In this document: positions 1,284 to 52,172 of the stretch, piece after piece
How positions within the stretch are numbered: position 1 is the first letter of the stretch
Layout of the letters: each line of letters starts with the position of its first letter
From: a virus
Taxonomy: Duplodnaviria; Caudoviricetes
Virus record (IMG/VR): IMGVR_UViG_3300011116_000659
Span: 1-54,029 of that record
Length of the DNA stretch: 54,029 nucleotides
Strand: one strand, 5' to 3'
Made by a program: the position numbers and the translations under genes
The notes under the pieces: model-generated
The model's database searches: none
What the model saw: only the letters and a program-made list of their open reading frames with translations
Told to the model about the DNA's origin: nothing

Positions 1284-4041
1284 CGAGCACCTCAACGGAT
1301 TCCTCGATAGTGATAGGCTCTACGGTCTGAGCCTTTGCGCGGATACCGAGCAGACTTTCCTTGTTCGCGCGCCAGAGACGGTCAGAGCTACCCGCCATCC
1401 GAGTCGGCCAGCGGTAGTCGTTGCCTTGATACCGTTCAAGCAGACCCCGGCGTGCCCAAGTAGCGGTGAGCGTGGTAGGGCTACCAGGGAATCCGGTATC
1501 TTTCAGGAACTTCTGAACGGCCGGAGCATTGAAGTACATTTCCGTCCAGTTATCTCCGCCATCCCACCTACCCAGCCAACCCCCCGTCGGGCCAGTGCCC
1601 CGGTTGTCAACCGTGTAGAAGTTATGACGGTGTGAGAGTGCCCAGGAGTAGAAGGCTGCGAAGGAACGGAGCGCCGGGTCTACCACACCCGACTGCTGGT
1701 CAATCTCAATGAGCGCGTCGGCCAACAGACGGCATACCTCCCCAGGGTCGAAGTCGGGATGGTCCACTCCGCTATCACGGAGCGTCTTCTTGATGAGAGA
1801 ACCGGCGAGGTCAATCACAGCGATATGCGAGGATACGCGGTCGGCAGCGGAATGCTTGCTACCCAAGTAAGTCAGCCACTTGTCACGACGCTTTGCCCAC
1901 TGACCACGTAGTACCTCGGAAGAATACCCGGTCATGGTCTGCACAACAGCCGGACCCAGCGTGCCATAGTTAGCATACATCGGGTCGGCAATCGGTGCAA
2001 CGATACGGCTCACCTCGCCACCCGTAAGCGCGTCGAATGGTGGCGCTTGGATAGACAGAAGCCGCGCACGGGCACCCCCGGACTGGCCCAAGCCATAGAT
2101 TGGCTCCTCACCCGTAGAGAACAGGACGAGGTTCCACTGACTTGATGCCTCCAGACCACCGGGCTTACCACGTCCACGCCCCTCACCGGACACGGCGCGG
2201 TAGATAGCCCACTCAAGAGCCTGAGTCAGCCTATCACCGGACTCACTCGCGGTCTTCGTGTCATCGAGGAACATAGGCAGGTGCCCAAGGAAGGCAGCCT
2301 TGCGCTCAAACCCTACCTTGGTGTTATCCCACGACGCCTCACAGTCGATAGGCTTGGCGAAGACGCTCTCAGCCATACGCATCGACGTGGTCTTACCAGT
2401 GCCAGTGCCCGAGGCCCACTCAAAGGCGAAGCTCTGACACCCTACCCGTTGCAGCAGAGGAGAGGCGACGGCGGCCATGATACCGACCACTGCCATCGGA
2501 TAGGCAAGCAACTTGTGGAACCCCTGGGCCCACCCGCCGAGGGTGCCCACGGACTGGTAAGAGCGCGCGAGCTTCGCCGTCCCGTCCGCCGGGGTCTGCA
2601 CAAGCTCACGCATCATACCATCGTCGCCGGCAATCCAGGTGTTACCCATGAGGAAGCTGTCACCGAACCAGCCCAGACGAGAAGCGGTCATCTGCACGGG
2701 GATACGGGCACGATTGTGAGACACAAACTCAGAGAAGAACCGGGTAAGCTCTTTCTTGTTACTCTCGTTCACGTCCAGCCCCATACGACCGGCGCGCTCC
2801 GTGAGCTTGTTCGCGGACCCACACTCATCCCGGCGCAGCACTACGCTGTGAGTACCATGGTGAGTGATGTGGGACCACTCGATCTTCCACCACTCATCGT
2901 GTGTCTCACCATCCTGGTACAGCTTCGTGACCAGCGGTGCCGTGAAGCTGATGACGCGGTACTTGTCCCCACCTGCCTCCTTACGCTTCTTCTTACTGCC
3001 GTCATTCTTCCCCTCCTCCTGGGCACTCTGGTTCAACGCGACCAGGGCGTGAGAGGTGGAGCGGAGATAAGGCACAGGGTAGATGAACTCACCGACACCG
3101 AGGGACTGCTTGACAGCCCACGTCATACCGGCAGGGTGATTGTGGTTGGCAGAGGTACAGGAGATATAGAGAACCCCCCGCACGAACCGTGCCCAGGCAG
3201 AGTAGCTACCCGAGGTATTCGCAGTATCCTTGTGTGGGCACTGACACCGTGCCTTACCAGGCTCAGAGGGCCGCGAGTAGGTGACGATATCTTCCGGGGT
3301 AATCTGACTGACCAGCGTGGTCTGCATAGGGTCGGCTTCCCATTCAATGAAGGAATCGCCAACCTCGGACTCTTCCGCCAGCGGGACAGACACCTTGGTA
3401 TTGAGGGTGCCCAACTCTTCGGGCACACCAGCCATAGCACCGGGCTCTACCTCAACGGAGGGAGCCGTGGGCACACGGAGCGCAGCCGTGTTGATGTAGT
3501 TGGACATACCAGGCACGGGGAGAACGTGCAGACGGCTCGGCTCACAGCACGTCTTATCAACGACCAGCCCTTCCGTGGGCATAGGCTTCCCCTTGCCGCC
3601 CCGATGCACAACAATCGTGCTCCCGAGTTCGGCGGCGATACCTTCCCACTCGTGCCCTACCTGAGAGATAGGGATAGGGGTAGCCAGGGGGATGACGACG
3701 CGGGCACGCACGGCGCCGGGACGGGACTGCCACGTCTCCCAGGCATAGTAGCCACAGCCCAGCGTATCAAAGGTATCCGTGATATCCTGGAACGTAGCGC
3801 CGTTCGACTCATCGACATCGAACACAATCGACGTGACCCGCGTGACAGACAGCGCGTCCAGCTTAGGGTGTGTGTCATCACACTCAGCGTATAGAGCACA
3901 CCAATGGGTGAGCTTCGTCGGCGCGGGCGTAGCTTCAAGCTTGGTGAGAAGACTCTGAATCGTCGTAGGCCATGTGACCACGACCTTCTTTGCATTGACG
4001 GTCGAGCGGTCGTAGACCCCATGCAACATATAGAACAGCAT
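1276..4041 (-). CDS. Primase-helicase (N-terminal primase-like domain, Zn-binding motif, DUF927/Cch-like helicase)
   Basis: IVFDVD, RARVVIPL and DKTCCEPSRL primase-like motifs; CQCPH Zn motif; SRLGW; Walker A SGTGTGKTT; LPMFLDD; GEGRGRG; FSTGE. Confidence 0.85.
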   Translation of the reverse strand: MLFYMLHGVYDRSTVNAKKVVVTWPTTIQSLLTKLEATPAPTKLTHWCALYAECDDTHPKLDALSVTRVTSIVFDVDESNGATFQDITDTFDTLGCGYYAWETWQSRPGAVRARVVIPLATPIPISQVGHEWEGIAAELGSTIVVHRGGKGKPMPTEGLVVDKTCCEPSRLHVLPVPGMSNYINTAALRVPTAPSVEVEPGAMAGVPEELGTLNTKVSVPLAEESEVGDSFIEWEADPMQTTLVSQITPEDIVTYSRPSEPGKARCQCPHKDTANTSGSYSAWARFVRGVLYISCTSANHNHPAGMTWAVKQSLGVGEFIYPVPYLRSTSHALVALNQSAQEEGKNDGSKKKRKEAGGDKYRVISFTAPLVTKLYQDGETHDEWWKIEWSHITHHGTHSVVLRRDECGSANKLTERAGRMGLDVNESNKKELTRFFSEFVSHNRARIPVQMTASRLGWFGDSFLMGNTWIAGDDGMMRELVQTPADGTAKLARSYQSVGTLGGWAQGFHKLLAYPMAVVGIMAAVASPLLQRVGCQSFAFEWASGTGTGKTTSMRMAESVFAKPIDCEASWDNTKVGFERKAAFLGHLPMFLDDTKTASESGDRLTQALEWAIYRAVSGEGRGRGKPGGLEASSQWNLVLFSTGEEPIYGLGQSGGARARLLSIQAPPFDALTGGEVSRIVAPIADPMYANYGTLGPAVVQTMTGYSSEVLRGQWAKRRDKWLTYLGSKHSAADRVSSHIAVIDLAGSLIKKTLRDSGVDHPDFDPGEVCRLLADALIEIDQQSGVVDPALRSFAAFYSWALSHRHNFYTVDNRGTGPTGGWLGRWDGGDNWTEMYFNAPAVQKFLKDTGFPGSPTTLTATWARRGLLERYQGNDYRWPTRMAGSSDRLWRANKESLLGIRAKAQTVEPITIEESVEVLDV

Positions 4042-4043
4042 GA

Positions 4044-4247
4044 CTATCCTGCGAGTTCATTGGTTCGCTTCACACGGGCATCGACGACGGAGTTGACAAC
4101 CTCCGCCAAGTCAGGGTGGTCCTTCACATGCTTGTCAATCAGTGTCTCAATGAGGGCAGACGGCTGCATACCTTGAAGGTGACACAGTGCCTCGAAAGCG
4201 TACTGAGTACGCTGGTCGGCTCGGTATGAGCGGTGGACAGTAGCCAT
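4044..4247 (-). CDS. Ribbon-helix-helix (CopG/Arc-like) DNA-binding protein
   Basis: HRSYRAD beta ribbon then helix-G-x-x-x-SALIETLI helix pattern; 67 aa. Confidence 0.6.
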   Translation of the reverse strand: MATVHRSYRADQRTQYAFEALCHLQGMQPSALIETLIDKHVKDHPDLAEVVNSVVDARVKRTNELAG

Positions 4248-4513
4248 TATTCCTTCTCCGTGATAAGTTCGATTTCGTGTGGAAACATGATGCGAAGTAG
4301 AACCTCTGAGTACTGGACCCGAATCCCATCAAGGATGTAAGACTCGACCACCCCTATCCACCCAGGGCGTACCTCACTATATGGGCAGCTTAGCACCCGT
4401 ACCTTAGCACCAATGGGAAAGGCGAGAATGAGGTCAAGTGATACCCCCGGCTCGATTTCCACCATATCCGCGGGACCGCTCCCGTGCCACGTCGGCACCG
4501 AAGGATTGCTCAT
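4247..4513 (-). CDS. Small protein, FPIG-motif family
   Basis: SLDLILAFPIGAKVRV...IGVVESY; start at 4513 gives ATGA coupling. Confidence 0.8.
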   Translation of the reverse strand: MSNPSVPTWHGSGPADMVEIEPGVSLDLILAFPIGAKVRVLSCPYSEVRPGWIGVVESYILDGIRVQYSEVLLRIMFPHEIELITEKE

Positions 4514-4746
4514 GGTACGTTCTCCTCTTCTGGACGGATGATACGAACGTTCGCTATTAGCATCCATGCCTGCCGGTGATTACTCTCACTATGGTCAAGC
4601 TTCACATGTAGTGCATAGCTTCCCGGGATAGGTTCTGAGTGACCGACGACAACCGCACTCCGCTCCATGCTCTCATGCCATACATGGGCACCTATGGGGT
4701 ACCGTAGGATGAGGTCGAACATGCTATTGATGTCACTCATAGTCAT
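4510..4746 (-). CDS. Small protein, FPIG-motif family
   Basis: MFDLILRYPIGAHVWHESM...VVVGH. Confidence 0.8.
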   Translation of the reverse strand: MTMSDINSMFDLILRYPIGAHVWHESMERSAVVVGHSEPIPGSYALHVKLDHSESNHRQAWMLIANVRIIRPEEENVP

Positions 4747-14790: not shown

Positions 14791-15612
14791 TTACTTGTTC
14801 CGACCACCGTTCCGACCCTGACCCGTGGGGGCCGTGGTAGCGGTCGGGGGGGCCATGGCCGCACGGACGCGCGCCGCCGCCGCCGCGTCGCCGTTCGCCG
14901 CCGCGAGCGCATCGTCCACGGAACACCCGGTCAGAAGGGCGAGCATCTGAGCAGATTTCAGAGCTTCCGCCTTCCGCGTCTCTTCGACGGCCACACTCAC
15001 CGCTGCCTTGATACGCGCGTCCGTGTCACGGGCCGGCTTGACTGCCTCGCCCTTGATGGCACGCGCGTCCGTGTCACGGGCCGGCTTGACTGCCTCGCCC
15101 TTGATGGCATCGCTGAGGACCGGACCGATGGTGAACCCGCCGAAGAGGGTCCGAAGCTCGTCCCCGACCGTGGTACGCGGGCGCGTGGTACCGGCCCCCA
15201 TCACCATCGCCGCGCGGTAGAACGTGACCGACCGGCCGTCGTACGACGTGACGAGATAGGGCAGCGCGCGGGCGTCCGTCTGGGCGTCCCGAATGCGGGT
15301 GAGGTAGGCGGCGATGCTCTTCCCCGCGTCGTCATCGCTGACATCGGCCTTGACGGTCAGCTTGACGTTGACGTACCACGCCGACTGCGCCTTGAGCACC
15401 GGGTCAGCGTCCGTGTGGATGTTGTGGCGCGCGACGTTGACGAGCGGGAGGAACGTGACGGACGCGGTGATGTCGCCCGTCTCACACGTCGTCTCCTCGG
15501 GCGACGCGTACGGGGTGCCGAGCTTGTTTACGATGGCAGCCGTCTCTTCCGGGGTCATCGCGGCGCGGGTCTGGGTGGTCGTGGTAGCGGGGGTGGTCGT
15601 GGTAGCGGACAT
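14791..15612 (-). CDS. Isolated Ala/Thr-rich hypothetical early protein (273 aa)
   Basis: AGGAG upstream; own terminator; GC-rich codon usage. Confidence 0.75.
   Translation of the reverse strand: MSATTTTPATTTTQTRAAMTPEETAAIVNKLGTPYASPEETTCETGDITASVTFLPLVNVARHNIHTDADPVLKAQSAWYVNVKLTVKADVSDDDAGKSIAAYLTRIRDAQTDARALPYLVTSYDGRSVTFYRAAMVMGAGTTRPRTTVGDELRTLFGGFTIGPVLSDAIKGEAVKPARDTDARAIKGEAVKPARDTDARIKAAVSVAVEETRKAEALKSAQMLALLTGCSVDDALAAANGDAAAAARVRAAMAPPTATTAPTGQGRNGGRNK
15013..15108. repeat. Perfect 48-bp tandem duplication
   Basis: 15013-15060 = 15061-15108; encodes AIKGEAVKPARDTDAR twice. Confidence 0.95.
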
Positions 15613-16396
15613 GGTAGGCTCCTGACTTGACGTGACTTGTGAGTGAGTGAACGCGCTACAGAGACAGCGCGCTTGTTTGGTGGTACGGGTAGCCGGGTTA
15701 GGCCGGCGCGGGTTTCAAGCCGCAAGCTCCACTATCCTGTCATCGGTCCGTGTCACACCATTTCTGCTATCTTCGGCGCGGCTTGACACTTTCTTGACAT
15801 TTGACGGCCGCGAACGTACGTAATCCGCTCGCGATGGTACCCCCATGGGAACACCGGAGAGGGGTCTACAGCGCGTCGTGGTCCGGGGCCATGTCATCCC
15901 CCGGGTGTGTCCGCTCCCGTCGTTCCTGAGAGAAACGTACATTCTTGCCTGTTACGACGTTCGTGTATTCTGACTCGCGACGGGGCAGACGTGTCCGCCG
16001 GTCGGTCATTCGTCGGGAGTGACAAGTCACACGGGTAGCCGTCTCTCTCTCCGCCGGGTGAGAGTGACCGACCGGTCATTCCGTCGTATCTGTTACCGTT
16101 CGTCTGTTGCGACGGTGGTTCGCCAGAGGGTCCGGAGGGTCGCCGTCGAGGTGGGGGGGCACCGTCGGAATGGGGCCGGGGGATTTAGGGGGCCGGGGGA
16201 CTCCTCCCCGCCCCAAGTATACCAAACCACACATTGACCTCGCAATCTCAGCCTCCATCCTCCTCTATCCGCACTATACCCGTTCCTCATCCTCTCCTCA
16301 GACCACCATTGCGATAGAATATACTGGTTTAGGGTACCCTTCCCTTGAATGGAATAGTGACGATTCCAGGCCCATCTTTTTTGGCGTATACCCCCT

Positions 16397-16757
16397 TGTA
16401 GACAACGCACGATCGTCGGTTTTCTGCTTTCAGCGACACCCATCAAACGGAATAGTGGCGGTTAGAGGAGAACAGTTCAACTAAAATACCCCCTTGTAGA
16501 CAAGTATTCTTTCCAAAAAGGCACCCCTTATAGAGGCGCACTTCATGTTGATACATCAAGTCTATGTACAGGAACTTGGTGTTTATACTAAAACTTGGTG
16601 TTTCACTCGAAAATCCCCCAATATTAGAGGCTCCTTTTCCGCGAGAATACTTGTCTACAAGGGAGTATTTTACAAATGAAAGGCCCGTCCATCCCTGCTT
16701 TTCCTGTACTGGAACTGTCGTCAGGAACCGGAAACGGGAGAACGTGCGTTGTCTACA
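16397..16757. repeat. Large degenerate inverted repeat centred at 16577 (candidate origin, packaging or operator region)
   Basis: 16482-16510 vs 16644-16672 match 28/29 as reverse complements; 16397-16411 vs 16743-16757 match 15/15; both pairs share one centre; AT-rich. Confidence 0.9.
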
Positions 16758-16830
16758 CGAAGGGTTTTCCAAGGTTCGAGGCCCATTTCACCGTTGCAGA
16801 TTGATCCTGCATTTTTTTGCCGAATACTAC

Positions 16831-16859
16831 TTGATGAGCCCGTACACCAAGGTTAGGCT
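16831..16859 (+). promoter_or_regulatory. Sigma70-type promoter
   Basis: TTGATG-N17-TAGGCT upstream of ATG 16885. Confidence 0.5.
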
Positions 16860-16884
16860 ACCCAGACCCACCCGAGGTGCCCCC

Positions 16885-17673
16885 ATGGTCCGCAGCCCGA
16901 AGCCAACCAAAGTCTCTGAGCATATCCAGCACAAGCATGACTGTCCCGTGCTTGACTTCACCAGTATCACCAGCCCCCATGAGGACGGATATATCGTCAC
17001 GGGAAAAGACCTGCTGTCGGCGCTCCGTGAGCATCTGCCGACGGCGGGTGTCAGAGAGGTGAATGCCTACGCTTACTATAACAAGTTCCAAGAGTTCGTT
17101 GTCTACGAAGGACCGAACCCTACGAGGCGGTTCTACAATACGCGGGAGTTCTTCGCGTATGAGGAAGTATTGCGGCAGAGAATACTTGCTGGTACGGCGA
17201 AGCGCCGTAAGCCGAGTGACCCGCTCCCTGAGGCGAACTACCGGCGACCCCCTGGTCGGCCGCCTGCGGGCACGCCTCCGATTCCGATGCCGAAGCCTCG
17301 TGTCATCGCGAAGACCATCACGGCTAAGTCTCAGTGCTTGCCGTTGCTGTTTACCGTGGGAGATAAGAAATCAGACATCCTCCTCCCTGGGCACTGCGCG
17401 GACTGGAAGGACGGGCACTTCGGTATGACCGTGTGGAACGTCACCGCTCTGCTCAAGCTCGTGTATGAGGAGAAGGTGACCATGCACGATGCACTCTGGT
17501 GGCTGTATTACCATAAGGTGGGTGTCCGTCAGTGGCGTGACCCGAAGGGAAAGATTCATGTGGTCTACTTGATGACCTCACCTGAACTGGTTAGTATGCA
17601 TCGCCGGTACTCGCTGACCTATCCGCTGGGTGGGCCCATTGAGAAGGCTGTTCTCTCTGGAGGTGTCGAATGA
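16885..17673 (+). CDS. Hypothetical, possible DNA-binding protein (AT-hook-like motif)
   Basis: GAGGT before ATG 16885; RRPPGRPP motif; first gene of the + arm. Confidence 0.65.
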   Translation: MVRSPKPTKVSEHIQHKHDCPVLDFTSITSPHEDGYIVTGKDLLSALREHLPTAGVREVNAYAYYNKFQEFVVYEGPNPTRRFYNTREFFAYEEVLRQRILAGTAKRRKPSDPLPEANYRRPPGRPPAGTPPIPMPKPRVIAKTITAKSQCLPLLFTVGDKKSDILLPGHCADWKDGHFGMTVWNVTALLKLVYEEKVTMHDALWWLYYHKVGVRQWRDPKGKIHVVYLMTSPELVSMHRRYSLTYPLGGPIEKAVLSGGVE

Positions 17674-17777
17674 CCGTACATCAAGTGGCAGTTGAGACAG
17701 TGACCATTATCAGTCTGAGTATGTTGCTCGGTGCCATCTTCGGCTACATGATGGGAGGTAACAATGTCAACCGCTAA
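17670..17777 (+). CDS. 35-aa single-TM microprotein (not in ORF track)
   Basis: GGAGGT SD, ATGA overlap; MTVHQVAVETVTIISLSMLLGAIFGYMMGGNNVNR. Confidence 0.6.
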   Translation: MTVHQVAVETVTIISLSMLLGAIFGYMMGGNNVNR

Positions 17778-17892
17778 TCTCTCTCAGGACCAGATTCGTC
17801 AGATTGCCTTCCTGGCTATGCTGGAGGCGAAGGAGGATGATATTCAGCTATCCCTTTTCGATAAGACTCTGGGCGTCGAGCGGTTGACATAG
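17764..17892 (+). CDS. 42-aa microprotein with QLSLF clamp-binding motif (not in ORF track)
   Basis: GGAGGT at 17754-17759; MSTANLSQDQIRQIAFLAMLEAKEDDIQLSLFDKTLGVERLT. Confidence 0.7.
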   Translation: MSTANLSQDQIRQIAFLAMLEAKEDDIQLSLFDKTLGVERLT

Positions 17893-17911: not shown

Positions 17912-17952
17912 GGCGCCATGGCGGTAATCCCCGCTGCTCCACCGAGGACACG

Positions 17953-18420
17953 ATGACTCTCGCACATGCCCTGTACAATGCCTACAATGCTGGGGGTGAC
18001 CCTGCGACTGCGAACAAGAACTACCGGGGCGAGCCCTGCCCGGAGTGGGACGACCTCCCCGAGAACATCCGTGCGAAGTGGGAGGCATGTGTGTCTCTCA
18101 TCAATCAGGAGTTTGGGGCACTCCCGTCTACGGGTGCGAGCTTTGGCTCTGCCATTGCTTATCTCAAGATGGGTTTCCGGGTCCGTCGCGCTGGCTGGAA
18201 CGGGAAGGGTATGTGGCTTGCTCTGTCCTGTGATAGCGGACGTGAGACGAAGGCCGAGAACTTCTGGTCTGAGCACAACAAAGCGTATGCTGAGCAGAAC
18301 GGCGGTACCGCTACCGTTCTCCCGTGTATCACCATGAAGACTGCCACGGGCGAAATCCTCATGGGCTGGCTCGCCTCACAGACGGATATCCTTGCTGTTG
18401 ATTGGGAAGTGGTCGCGTAA
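17953..18420 (+). CDS. tad2: DUF2829 / Tad2-like anti-defence sponge with an extra N-terminal domain
   Basis: FGSAIAYLKMGFRVRRAGWNGKGMWL...ITMKTATG...GWLASQTDILAVDWEVV; GAGGA before ATG 17953. Confidence 0.8.
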   Translation: MTLAHALYNAYNAGGDPATANKNYRGEPCPEWDDLPENIRAKWEACVSLINQEFGALPSTGASFGSAIAYLKMGFRVRRAGWNGKGMWLALSCDSGRETKAENFWSEHNKAYAEQNGGTATVLPCITMKTATGEILMGWLASQTDILAVDWEVVA

Positions 18421-18437
18421 CAAGATAGGAGGGCGCC

Positions 18438-19754
18438 ATGGCTCGTCAGATTCAACTCCATGGCGCCCCTGTATCGCCGGTCAACTGCATCGATGAGAAC
18501 GGTAAGTTCATCGACTACTATGACGGGCGCCGGCGTCCTGTGCCTCAGCATGACTGCAAGGTCTACTCGTTCCGACCACACCTGCATCTGATTGACCATG
18601 TGTTCCAAGGGATGCGCCGAGTTCAGACGATTCCACTGGACTCTTACCGCTTGCCCAACATTCTGAGCCTTACCACCCTCACGCCTGGGCCCGAGGAAAC
18701 GGCGTCGTCGTGGAAGGTACGCAACTCGGCGGGGAAGGCTGCCCAAAGTGTCGGGTCGTTCTGTATTGGCAATAGTGCTGACTATGCCTCTATGGTCCTC
18801 GATGAGAACTGGCGAGTCTATCGTCCTGCGTGGCATCCCACGATTCATGCTGCGTTTGGGCTTGAAGACCCTCCCACGCCTCGTGAGGTAGTCAACTACC
18901 TTGTAGCTAAGAAGGGTCCGTTCTGTACTGGCATCATGTCTCGTACAAGCGTGTGCGGGCTTTCGATGCTTACTTATTACTGCATCGGGGCACACGCGCC
19001 CTCGCTCGCGCGCATCTTCTCATTGACGGAAGAGGAGTTGATAGGGGCGATTGCTCTTACCATCAAGCAGCTATGTGGGCACCTCGCCTTCAAGCTGTGG
19101 GCATCCGGGTCTGACCTCACACCGCTGTGTCATACGACTCCTCTGACGCACTACTTCAATACCATCATGACGCAGCGTGTCACTGGTATGAATGACAACA
19201 CCAAGCGGTTGTTGCCTTCCCAGATTGCCGCCCTGCGTAACAAGGACTCATACTTCCAGTTGATTGCTATCGAGGGTCTACGTCTCAATCCGATTCAACG
19301 GATGCGTACCCTTCACGATATCGCCTGGAAGACCAACGCCGCGAAGCGTCACATGGAAGAGACGTGGTGGTGGGGCTCTTACGCCTCTAAGAACTGGCGT
19401 AAGAATAAGTGGATGTTCCGTCACTTGCAGACCGGTGTTGGGCTCGACCCTACCATCCGGCTTGAATACTTCCCGTTCCGGGGTGAGGCACCTCCGGATA
19501 AGAAGCTGCATATGCCATTCGACTTCATGAAGGAGCTTGCGAACCTCTATGGCAAAGAAGGAATCAACGAAGCCGAGTTTGCCCGCGTGTACGCCAAGTG
19601 GGCAGATTATGAAACTGCTCGAACCGGGAGCCCTCCGCGACCCCGAAGCAGTTACCGATTTGCAAGCTGCCCTACTGACGGGGTTGCTTCGCGGCGACAT
19701 ACCGATGATTTACTCGAAGGAACTGAGGGACTGGAGTTCCCAGATTCAGAGTAA
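18438..19754 (+). CDS. Hypothetical protein (438 aa)
   Basis: AGGAGG SD; long ORF; no motif recognised. Confidence 0.8.
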   Translation: MARQIQLHGAPVSPVNCIDENGKFIDYYDGRRRPVPQHDCKVYSFRPHLHLIDHVFQGMRRVQTIPLDSYRLPNILSLTTLTPGPEETASSWKVRNSAGKAAQSVGSFCIGNSADYASMVLDENWRVYRPAWHPTIHAAFGLEDPPTPREVVNYLVAKKGPFCTGIMSRTSVCGLSMLTYYCIGAHAPSLARIFSLTEEELIGAIALTIKQLCGHLAFKLWASGSDLTPLCHTTPLTHYFNTIMTQRVTGMNDNTKRLLPSQIAALRNKDSYFQLIAIEGLRLNPIQRMRTLHDIAWKTNAAKRHMEETWWWGSYASKNWRKNKWMFRHLQTGVGLDPTIRLEYFPFRGEAPPDKKLHMPFDFMKELANLYGKEGINEAEFARVYAKWADYETARTGSPPRPRSSYRFASCPTDGVASRRHTDDLLEGTEGLEFPDSE

Positions 19755-49314: not shown

Positions 49315-49518
49315 TCAGTCTGCCCACTCCCTAAGTTCTGATGTAGTAAAGTATCGTATGGCAGCAGTCTTTGTTGTCTCTGTGACAAAGTAGGCACCGT
49401 CATCCCCATAGGCACTCACATCGACGGCAAAGACTATCTTCCTTTTTACCGGCCTCTCTCTGACATAAGTAACGTATGATCCGATTGGAAACCGTAGAAT
49501 AGCCTCCAGGTACGTCAC
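49315..49518 (-). CDS. Small protein, FPIG-motif family
   Basis: YLEAILRFPIGSYVTY; GTGA overlap with the polymerase stop. Confidence 0.75.
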   Translation of the reverse strand: MTYLEAILRFPIGSYVTYVRERPVKRKIVFAVDVSAYGDDGAYFVTETTKTAAIRYFTTSELREWAD

Positions 49519-52172
49519 ACTGCCTCCCAAGTGGGCCCAATCTTCTTCTCTGCCGTGTAGGTCAGGAGAGCGCCGGTCTTCCGGCGCCGCGTCATCGATG
49601 CCTCAAGGGTCTTACCAAACTCCTCTGCGACATCCTCGGGCACCTCCCACATGGAGCTATCATGGGTCTGAGTGACCATGCCGATACGACGCTTGAAATC
49701 CCAGGTAACCCAGGGCTTGTATGCAGAGGTATCAATGATGCTGGTAGCCTCCGTGGCGAACCACGGTTGGTGCCCAATCAGAAGCTCAATGAGGGCTTCC
49801 ATAACAATGCCGAACCCACCAGCCTGGATAGGGTGGTTGATACGCTCGTTCTTGGTAGCGTCTCCACGGAAGTAGCGGCGCCGGCCCCAGATGGTATCAG
49901 CAACGAAGCCATGCCGTTTGAAGTCGGCTTCCACCGAATCCCACCAGATGGGCACCTCGGGGTCTGCGGAGCTAAGACCGTCGCACACCTCACGAATCAT
50001 ATCTTTGGTGTACTGAGCATAGGGGAGATTACCATGCTCGTCCTCGACAGAGACAACTTGCTCCCAGATTTTCTTATACCATGCACCGTACTGCCACGCA
50101 TAGCGTACGTTCTTGGTCACTCCCCGTGTGTCTTTGAATAGTCCTTTGCCTTTTTTAGTTCGGAAGACAGTGCGTCCGCCGCACATAGCCACGGTAGTGC
50201 CATTGGGAAGGTGACAAGGCACACCAGGGCCAGCCCCGCAATGCAGACATGCACCAGAAGGGGCCCCAGGAAGGTTCCAAACTTCCGCACCATAGATATG
50301 CTCCATAGTCTCGTTGTGAAGGTCAAGTAGGTTATTGAAGATGCTCAGCATACGAGGGGATGCTGACTCCTCCGCAATCGCTTTCGCCTCAAGAGCATCC
50401 GCGTCACACCCGATGAAGATATGACCGGGCTCGGGAACAAAGCAGTCACGCAACAGGGACGGAATGTTCTGCGCGTTAGGGTCAGAGCTACTATAACGAC
50501 CCGTAGCAGGAAGACGATTGTAGCTCGGGTGGATACGTCCATCGGCGCCGAGGTGAGAATCGGGCCCAGGGAGCCAGCGAGCAAGGTACGTACCGATAAC
50601 CTTGGTGGCTTGTCGATACATACGTAGGGCGTTCAAGATAACCCGCTGGTCTGCGGTCAGCGGGTACTTGGTAATCATCGTACGGATGGTGTCATCGTCG
50701 CACGAGGGTGCCCCGGTAAGCTCGGAGTAGGAGACGGGAGATAGGTTCCAGTCAACAAACAGGAGCCTGGACAGTTGAGTCAGGCTGCCAGGATTGAACG
50801 AGGAACTGATATTCTCACGCATGGTCAGAAGGGCAGTGTCACGCTTCTTCTCCTCAAGAGCCATGTGCTCATGCACCTTCTCTTGGTCCACCCTCATACC
50901 GATACGCTGCATTGCCCACCCGATCTTCTGCAAGAGGTGTTCCCTCTCGATAAGATGGGTCTGTCCGCGCGCCGCCACTTGGGAGAGGAGGGGTGCCCGG
51001 ATGCGGTGGGTGACTGCACAGTCTTTCGCGTTGTACACCCAGAGAGCCATATCCGTCTTAGCATCTTCACGGGTGTTGTCCGCCTTCCACGCCTCGGTGA
51101 AGTCGGTACGGTAGCTGCCCTCATAGCCCAAGCCGTGAGGCATTTCATTGTCAGCCAGGAGACTGAGCAAGATAGTATCAGTGTCCAGCTTGGGGGTCAC
51201 ACCAAGCTGCTCCTCACAGTTGAGACGGTCATACTGACCGGCGTTGTGCCCAATCAGCTTGGCGGGCGGGTTCTTGAGGAAGGCGCGGAGCGTCGGCTTG
51301 ACGTGCCCCTCCCACTCTTTCTTCGTGAAGATAGGTGACCCGTCGATACGGCGAACGGCAACAGTGAGGGCGCGGTCGCCGGTCGCGAAGCCGATACAGC
51401 GGAGCTTGGCAGACATGGCCTTGAGCCCGTCCGTCTCAACGTCGTAGCTGATATACTCCGGATTCTTCTCAGTGAGGAAGGTTGGGAAGTGGAGCGTGAA
51501 ATCCATGAGCGATGTAACAATAATCGTCTCAGGGTCAGTCCAGGTCAGCTTGTTCTTGAAGTAGCGGATAGACTTCGCGATGTCGTTGCGGAACGTGTCA
51601 CGCCACTTCGGGTCTTGGAGAACACGGCGCGGGTGCAGGGTGTACCCCACCTTGCTCGTACGCCCGTCAAGCCAAGTCACTTCCTCACAGGCGCCGCGCA
51701 GTGAGTCAGGGGAGTAGTTGGCTCCCTTGATAAACTTGCACGCATCGCCGAGGACAATGATATACTTGAAGTCCTGCACCCCCCGCCCTTGGGCACACGC
51801 GACAAGCGGGTGAAGCCCAAAGCCCTTCTTCTTACCGATGGCAAACGCCTTCTTGATATCGCCATCGTTTGGACGACAGGCAGCCACGTTGAAGAAACGG
51901 CAACGGTTACGAGGAAGCCCGATAAGGTCGAAGGCGTCCATCAACTCACGTCCGTTACGGTCCGTGAAGGGTCGTCCGTTTGTCACATCGCTATCACTCG
52001 GAAAGTCTCCGAGCACAGCGATAACATCATCGGGGTGCGTCTCAGGAGGCACCGGTCCATTGAGAATCATTGACGAAAGAGCGCAGCCATGGCACGCAGA
52101 GTCGGGGCACCTGCCTTCCCCAGAATCCGTGATAGTCACGGTGGTGTTTCCCCCCTTGCTCTTACGCGCCAT
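49515..52172 (-). CDS. polA: Family A DNA polymerase with N-terminal uracil-DNA glycosylase-like domain and 3'-5' exonuclease
   Basis: UDG-like: CHGCAL, GDFP, GRPF, NVAACRP, TLHP; Exo: YDVET, HNAGQYD, YNAKD; Pol: TGRYSSSDPNAQNIP, DADALE, RGVTKNVRYAWQYG, NHPIQ, THDS. Confidence 0.95.
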   Translation of the reverse strand: MARKSKGGNTTVTITDSGEGRCPDSACHGCALSSMILNGPVPPETHPDDVIAVLGDFPSDSDVTNGRPFTDRNGRELMDAFDLIGLPRNRCRFFNVAACRPNDGDIKKAFAIGKKKGFGLHPLVACAQGRGVQDFKYIIVLGDACKFIKGANYSPDSLRGACEEVTWLDGRTSKVGYTLHPRRVLQDPKWRDTFRNDIAKSIRYFKNKLTWTDPETIIVTSLMDFTLHFPTFLTEKNPEYISYDVETDGLKAMSAKLRCIGFATGDRALTVAVRRIDGSPIFTKKEWEGHVKPTLRAFLKNPPAKLIGHNAGQYDRLNCEEQLGVTPKLDTDTILLSLLADNEMPHGLGYEGSYRTDFTEAWKADNTREDAKTDMALWVYNAKDCAVTHRIRAPLLSQVAARGQTHLIEREHLLQKIGWAMQRIGMRVDQEKVHEHMALEEKKRDTALLTMRENISSSFNPGSLTQLSRLLFVDWNLSPVSYSELTGAPSCDDDTIRTMITKYPLTADQRVILNALRMYRQATKVIGTYLARWLPGPDSHLGADGRIHPSYNRLPATGRYSSSDPNAQNIPSLLRDCFVPEPGHIFIGCDADALEAKAIAEESASPRMLSIFNNLLDLHNETMEHIYGAEVWNLPGAPSGACLHCGAGPGVPCHLPNGTTVAMCGGRTVFRTKKGKGLFKDTRGVTKNVRYAWQYGAWYKKIWEQVVSVEDEHGNLPYAQYTKDMIREVCDGLSSADPEVPIWWDSVEADFKRHGFVADTIWGRRRYFRGDATKNERINHPIQAGGFGIVMEALIELLIGHQPWFATEATSIIDTSAYKPWVTWDFKRRIGMVTQTHDSSMWEVPEDVAEEFGKTLEASMTRRRKTGALLTYTAEKKIGPTWEAV

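Follow-up and report, generated by a model that had tools for sequence, protein, structure and literature searches.

Can a phage protein of 42 residues take the replication machinery of its host out of action by means of a five-residue peptide? The question is raised by a small ORF in the window, the term used here for the whole stretch of DNA that was analysed, which is 54,029 b long, forms one IMG/VR virus record, is classed as linear and has a CheckV completeness estimate of 98%. The product of the ORF carries the pentapeptide QLSLF. This is an exact match to QL[SD]LF, given as the prokaryotic clamp-binding consensus in PMC12867686. According to PMC12309361, QLSLF is also the native C-terminal motif of B. 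subtilis PolC, and a QLSLF peptide binds B. subtilis DnaN with a similar KD (7.2 uM) in PolC or DnaE flanks. An interpretation of the small protein as a ligand of the host clamp is plausible, yet it rests on five residues of an orphan protein.

The phage genome and its relatives

The phage carries its own DNA polymerase, as the first-pass annotation of this DNA had supposed. The enzyme belongs to family A (PolA), and at its N-terminus a UDG-superfamily domain (PF03167) precedes the exonuclease and polymerase domains (Table 1). Its gene lies at the far right end of the window on the minus strand, together with that of a Sak4-like protein. The left arm, also on the minus strand, encodes a DUF927 primase-helicase, a DUF2201 metallopeptidase/VWA protein and an ATPase. 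No DnaN-type domain was found in the 98%-complete record, by a search that as a control found the domain in 11 of 14 known genomes. The plus-strand block opens with a conserved upstream gene and continues with a 35-aa ORF, the 42-aa ORF, a Tad2-like (Thoeris anti-defence 2-like) gene, a 438-aa gene and a 152-aa ORF. These are followed on the same strand by the large terminase (TerL), a portal-sized protein and structural genes. The window contains no Rfam family, and promoter-like and terminator-like sites are no commoner in it than in shuffles.

A low-coding gap of ~1.2 kb (15630-16830) between divergent gene blocks precedes the plus-strand block. It contains three exact copies and one near copy of TTGTCTACAAGGG, with two pairs 98 bp apart; four matches at up to two mismatches are attained by 3 of 100 shuffles. 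An 87-nt imperfect inverted repeat (16482-16672) lies in the same gap, which from its sequence could be an origin or an operator array. A 273-aa protein without a family (14791-15612, minus strand) has a Thr-rich N-terminus and an internal duplicated 16-residue peptide, and its gene bears an exact tandem 18-nt repeat at the 5′ end (15573-15608).

Cultured phages are very distant from this one, with TerL and PolA at most ~25% identical, and IMG/VR scans with single proteins (the 438-aa protein, TerL and PolA) returned no close relative. Metagenomes contain 374 TerL homologs at E 1e-10 or better, of which the nearest are 85, 81, 80 and 79% identical and all others at most 62%. A 36-sequence TerL alignment led to 164 related loci in total, 80 in IMG/VR, 80 in metagenomes (among the matches listed) and 4 in genomes. 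The closest relative among these loci is L162, the TerL of which is 85% identical; the relatives with TerL at 79-81% identity have no record in IMG/VR.

Two TerL relatives (53% identity) occur in MAG records, L242 (Myxococcales, 3.5 Mb) and L243 (Proteobacteria, 57 kb), the first of them inside a 3.5-Mb 'chromosome'. They could be a hint to the host or an artefact of binning or assembly. A further relative, L126 (TerL ~55% identical), encodes a 1,015-aa protein without a Pfam family (1523-4570, plus strand). This protein contains PDPNQLDLFPEE, QLRLPL and QQNLF in low-complexity stretches and, judging from these strings, may carry several clamp-binding motifs. Homology of the L126 protein to the flanking genes of the window was considered and rejected, there being no similarity.

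A small ORF with the signals of a translated gene

The coordinates and the protein sequence that the first-pass annotation gave for the 42-aa ORF are borne out, as are the Shine-Dalgarno (SD) sequence that it called strong and the position of QLSLF (Table 1). The product is acidic (pI 4.39). A survey of 34 gene starts in the window found a core SD match of at least 4 nt at 26 of them and a six-base match at five, and the start of the 42-aa ORF is among these five. To score codon usage, a model was trained on 19 genes of the window that are long and confidently assigned. For the ORF it gives a log-likelihood of 0.49-0.54 bits/codon, compared with a mean of 0.47 (sd 0.19) for true in-frame windows of 42 codons, and the five remaining frames across the same stretch score between -0.01 and -1.4. 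Spurious ORFs were represented by 230 stretches, 35-60 codons long, that lie within real genes and are open in a wrong frame. Their mean is -0.71 and their maximum 0.254, and none of the 230 attains the score of the 42-aa ORF.

Table 1. Features of the window discussed in the text (aa, amino acids; SD, Shine-Dalgarno sequence).
Feature	Position	Strand	Evidence and remarks
Upstream conserved gene, ~279 aa, no function assigned	16834..17673	+	Start 16834 or 16885
35-aa hydrophobic ORF	17670..17777	+	ATG overlaps stop of upstream gene (ATGA); GGAGGT upstream; codon score 0.233
SD GGAGGT of 42-aa ORF	17754..17759	+	4 nt before ATG 17764
42-aa ORF	17764..17892	+	ATG 17764, TAG 17890-17892 (stop included); product MSTANLSQDQIRQIAFLAMLEAKEDDIQLSLFDKTLGVERLT; no homolog found
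QLSLF, exact match to beta-clamp-binding consensus QL[SD]LF	17845..17859	+	Residues 28-32 of 42-aa protein
11-bp direct repeat GGCGCCATGGC, copy 1	17912..17922	+	Before Tad2-like gene
Tad2-like (Thoeris anti-defence 2-like) gene	17953..18420	+	PF11195, E 1.8e-21, 76.9 bits vs cut-off 25
11-bp direct repeat GGCGCCATGGC, copy 2	18432..18442	+	Contains start codon of 438-aa gene
438-aa gene, conserved, no function assigned	18438..19754	+	35% identity to L162 homolog
Family A DNA polymerase (PolA), UDG-like N-terminal domain	49515..52172	-	PF00476 7e-33; PF01612 1.3e-7; PF03167 9.3e-7; phrog_17 4.7e-79

The start of the 42-aa ORF overlaps the end of the 35-aa ORF by 14 nt, and the layout of 17670-17892 is, as far as sequence can tell, that of a translationally coupled operon. 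Codon usage, the SD sequence and the gene overlap together make it very probable that the ORF is translated. The first-pass annotation had described it as uncalled, which proved incorrect: the exact 42-aa sequence is already a record both in a collection of 5.8 billion proteins and in the ESM Atlas, and must therefore have been called by at least one gene caller. Three sequencing runs from one study, one of which may be the source, contain the stretch, with no RNA run among those listed, and the run contigs over 17764-17892 show no variant.

An accessory segment with a Tad2-like gene

The upstream gene is 25% identical (E 4e-8) to the syntenic gene of L162, and the N-terminal part of the 369-aa ORF to which it belongs scores as non-coding by the codon model. 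The 35-aa ORF has no family in Pfam or PHROGs. The gene next downstream of the 42-aa ORF is the Tad2-like one, with ATG 17953 as its probable start and an AGGA core ahead of it; PF11195 does not match the 42-aa ORF itself. The 438-aa gene was found in 30 of the 80 metagenome loci (among the matches listed).

In L162 the homolog of the upstream gene overlaps the start of the 438-aa homolog by ATGA. The two abut directly, and L162 therefore lacks the whole segment 17670-18420. By this sequence comparison the region evolves fast and the segment in it is an accessory insertion. Within the segment, the Tad2-like gene is flanked by two copies of GGCGCCATGGC, which occurs nowhere else in the window, and none of 100 shuffles contains two or more copies. 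The first copy opens a 12-codon remnant ORF (17918-17956), the stop codon of which overlaps the ATG of the Tad2-like gene, again as ATGA. The repeat and the remnant ORF resemble a scar left when Tad2 was inserted with its translational coupling preserved. In that history, which is read from the repeat alone, Tad2 looks like a separate insertion and the micro-ORFs would once have stood directly ahead of the 438-aa gene. In L162 the upstream gene has a longer C-terminal tail; the idea that the 42-aa ORF is what remains of such a tail was rejected for lack of similarity.

Two further features of this region were noted. The 438-aa gene and the 152-aa ORF that follows it overlap by ~218 nt in different frames (19537-19754), and their homologs in L162 overlap by ~137 nt (L162 5318-5454); the arrangement could represent conserved dual coding, a misplaced start or a frameshift site. 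In one sequencing run (X1), second contigs over the upstream gene (17056-17508) are 84-86% identical to the window, with 42 differences in 258 nt and 31 in 223 nt, and the sequence is identical from 17597 onward. This pattern suggests either that a strain in which the upstream gene has diverged co-occurs, or that a recombination boundary lies just before the micro-ORFs.

How rare is the motif?

QLSLF is not terminal in the 42-aa protein, as it lies 10 residues from the C-terminus. The amphipathic helix and acidic linker that the first-pass annotation saw ahead of it are recognisable as an N-terminal helix in an AF2 model, followed by EAKEDD. QL[SD]LF occurs once across the six frames of the window. 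Mononucleotide shuffles (n=200) give a mean of 0.075 occurrences per window, with at least one in 7.5% of shuffles, and the six frames of 240 other phage loci (1.95 Mb) contain three distinct occurrences, which is the same rate as in shuffles. Residue frequencies predict 0.011 occurrences per predicted proteome (54 proteins, 15,494 residues), 5e-4 in the proteins of the window of up to 80 aa and 2.7e-5 for one protein of 42 aa. The protein is itself rich in L, Q, D and S, and residue shuffles of it make the motif in 200 of 200,000 cases (1 in 1,000). The motif is thus rare, yet chance cases in small proteins are expected across a scan of ~250,000 windows.

The other 53 predicted proteins of the window, PolA included, have no clamp-type motif except under the loosest pattern, Q..[LMI].F, which has two matches, in TerL and in a 706-aa structural protein.

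The 42-aa protein is an orphan

Homologs of the protein were sought at several levels. A phmmer search of 1.84 billion representatives of every length matched only the protein itself, and so did a word-indexed search of the 5.8-billion-protein collection at near and longer lengths. Neither Pfam (E up to 0.01) nor PHROGs has a family for it, phmmer against the PDB gave 0 matches at E up to 10, and the ESM Atlas holds no usable look-alike. Among 50,697 phage records there was no tblastn match at E up to 10, and blastn of the 3.5-kb neighbourhood found no match among cultured phages.

Searches by gene context gave the same picture. At 80 Tad2 loci there was no similar ORF upstream (best E 2.2). 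By tblastn at E up to 10, the 80 IMG/VR and 4 genome loci related through TerL gave no match, and the 80 metagenome loci (among the matches listed) gave one junk match at E 2.8. The protein had a match in 0 of 4 whole records of complete relatives. Small ORFs with loosened clamp motifs were counted at 162 loci, with three on the gene strand and seven on the opposite strand; there is no enrichment, and these ORFs look spurious. No ortholog that could show conservation of the motif was found in any of the collections searched.

Structure model and co-fold with a sliding clamp

The AF2 single-sequence model of the 42-aa protein has a helix over residues 8-34 and a mean pLDDT of 69. Averaged over blocks of 10 residues, pLDDT is 82/87/60/53/41. 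The N-terminal helix is thus modelled fairly confidently and the motif-bearing C-terminal half is not; low pLDDT in that half is compatible with a flexible, accessible motif. The model places QLSLF within the helix. Clamp motifs in the bound state are extended.

The first-pass annotation had named co-folding with DnaN as a way to check its proposal. The partner was E. coli DnaN, taken as a stand-in for the clamp of the host. Three runs gave 0.43, 0.53 and 0.44, with a median of 0.44, and none of three controls rose above 0.00. At least 83% of contacts are common to the runs, the partner pLDDT is at least 53, and the score carries no information on the position of the motif. The check thus came out above its controls (0.44 vs 0.00) but only in the 'weak support' band and with a foreign clamp. 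In the calibration of the method, 51 of 78 solved complexes attained the mark, as did 2 of 108 mismatched pairs. Only 5 of those 78 solved complexes, and all 4 passing mismatches (of 180), had scores of 0.60 or less; a pass in this range is wrong more often than it is right, unless the pairing was already likely on other grounds. The co-fold score may also reflect memory of solved clamp-peptide complexes.

Known clamp-binding systems

Phage proteins that address the host clamp are already known and include Gp168, Gp240 and MuC. Twort Gp168 and G1 Gp240 are described in PMC8565349 as phage inhibitors of the host clamp. An atomic model of the Gp168-clamp complex has been built. According to the same paper, Gp168 occupies the DNA channel of the clamp and not the protein-binding cleft; it has no consensus motif. 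The role predicted for the 42-aa protein resembles that of Gp168 and Gp240: both are small, come from phages and have been proposed or shown to put the host clamp out of action and so to stop host replication. No homology to them emerged, as the PDB gave 0 sequences at E up to 10, PHROGs no family and tblastn no phage match.

MuC of phage Mu binds the clamp via QHDLF and QPDLF. When overproduced it kills by binding the clamp, and replacement of L by A removes the binding as well as the lethality (PMC12867686). The 42-aa protein is like MuC, a member of the Mor/C family with clamp motifs near its termini, in being a phage protein with a clamp-type motif. In contrast, MuC as described there is a 16.5-kDa DNA-binding transcription activator with near-consensus motifs, whereas the motif of the 42-aa protein is the exact consensus. 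Pfam (E up to 0.01) finds no Mor/C DNA-binding domain in the 42-aa protein, and 42 aa are too short for the 16.5-kDa Mor/C fold.

Cellular ligands of the beta clamp are represented by B. subtilis PolC, the QLSLF of which (PMC12309361) is identical to the pentapeptide of the 42-aa protein and to the consensus. In the 42-aa protein the motif lies close to the C-terminus behind an acidic stretch that may be flexible, which would resemble the arrangement in cellular ligands. Unlike these ligands, which are enzymes or regulators tethered by the motif, the 42-aa protein has no other recognisable domain and no ortholog in the collections searched. A full-text search of the literature, judged from listings and abstracts, returned no stand-alone phage microprotein that uses a canonical motif as a decoy.

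Could the protein plug the host clamp?

The reading that we tentatively prefer, as possible rather than probable, is that the 42-aa ORF encodes a translated accessory microprotein, which would sit as a plug in the protein-binding cleft of the host clamp. The N-terminal half would form a hydrophobic or amphipathic helix, and the C-terminal half an acidic linker followed by an exposed QLSLF. The pentapeptide would dock onto the DnaN sliding clamp of the host, in the hydrophobic cleft that binds proteins. As no part of the microprotein is catalytic or binds DNA, it would act as a competitive plug. It would keep clients such as the replicase, the clamp loader, repair polymerases and Hda-type regulators off the host clamp, while the family A polymerase of the phage would copy phage DNA without a clamp. 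If the helix mediated oligomerisation, the protein would bind both clefts of the clamp dimer with greater avidity. Expression, clamp binding, competition and any oligomerisation via the helix are what we infer.

The plug reading fits a phage that has its own polymerase and no clamp, a proteome in which clamp motifs are absent elsewhere, and a gene that is dispensable in relatives. It also counts in its favour that the ORF lies in an accessory segment that varies between relatives, with the Tad2-like anti-defence gene as its neighbour. Against any role at the clamp stand the lack of conservation, the helical model and the weak co-fold. Against the plug in particular, the lack of a homolog means that the sequences give no sign of selection on the motif, and the closest relative, L162, lacks the gene. 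The clamp competitor of the first-pass annotation thus keeps the sequence facts, the signs of translation, the phage polymerase, the absence of a phage clamp and a weak co-fold on its side, and has against it that no homolog was found.

These points can be weighed roughly. The chance of the motif is ~3e-5 per protein, and a true binder is estimated to have the exact consensus about a quarter (~1/4) of the time. With a prior of 1e-4 to 1e-3 for a clamp-targeting microprotein, the posterior is estimated to range from about even to strongly in favour.

A fuller version goes further. It describes a stand-alone 'clamp plug', composed of a self-associating helix and a consensus peptide, that saturates the clefts of the host clamp and thereby turns off host replication, repair and initiation control, leaving the clamp-independent polymerase of the phage unaffected. 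In all these particulars it is doubtful. The 35-aa hydrophobic peptide, the translation of which comes just before that of the plug, might also anchor the plug to the membrane.

Rival readings

Nearly as likely as the clamp plug is a function that has nothing to do with the clamp. The ORF would still encode a real and translated accessory microprotein, in which QLSLF would be a chance string on the hydrophobic face of a helix. Such a microprotein could serve in anti-defence or host takeover, act together with the co-translated 35-aa membrane peptide, or be a small oligomeric helix protein. Conservation cannot be demonstrated in the collections searched, the gene sits in a fast-evolving accessory segment next to the Tad2-like gene and is missing from L162, and AF2 draws residues 8-34 as a single helix, all of which agrees with a chance motif. 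So do the weak co-fold and the L/Q/D/S-rich composition, by which one in 1,000 of the protein's own shuffles yields the motif, as well as the expectation of ~5e-4 per phage in small proteins when very many windows are scanned. Chance accounts less well for a match of five residues out of five, given the value of 2.7e-5 per protein, and for the place of QLSLF, which follows an acidic linker and lies in the half modelled with low confidence. The peptide data of PMC12309361 also suggest that QLSLF binds independently of its flanks; in that case binding to the clamp would be probable for any exposed copy. No other function is backed by a match in Pfam, PHROGs, the PDB or the Atlas.

The other two readings are less probable. 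An adaptor, which we regard as improbable, would hold a phage protein by its N-terminal helix and tether it to the host clamp by QLSLF. The candidate cargo is the polymerase, the primase-helicase or a transcription factor, and the effect would be processivity, or late transcription coupled to replication as with MuC and T4 gp45. A protein in two parts, a hydrophobic helix and a motif, would suit this purpose, as would the position of the gene at the head of a rightward block that leads into the terminase, portal and structural genes, and MuC is a precedent for the use of clamp motifs in late transcription (PMC12867686). The protein, however, lacks a DNA-binding domain and a match to the Mor/C family. 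Relatives with the same core genes manage without the 42-aa gene, which is therefore not a core part of the replisome or the transcription apparatus. Least probable of all, and very unlikely, is an untranslated or functionless ORF that is open by chance, in an accessory segment that was rearranged recently. Its status as a singleton in every database searched would agree with this, and so would the signs of rearrangement in the segment, namely the 11-bp direct repeat around the neighbouring gene. Such an ORF would not be expected to have a codon score in the coding range and above all 230 spurious controls, or an SD sequence among the five strongest of 34 starts, and the overlapping, tightly packed genes leave no room for a non-coding reading.

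Implications for phage takeover

If the 42-aa protein does not bind the clamp, the case would illustrate that exact short linear motifs arise by chance in orphan phage ORFs, and motif matches without conservation would deserve a low rank. If the plug reading is true, this would be the smallest natural clamp antagonist and the first from a phage to use the canonical cleft. The bacterial sliding clamp is a validated antibacterial target, and a protein of this kind that binds would be a natural minimal peptide antagonist of it. Binding would also reveal a strategy of phage takeover that is unlike that of the DNA-channel blocker Gp168. Taken with MuC, it would suggest that mobile elements often address the clamp via bare consensus peptides.
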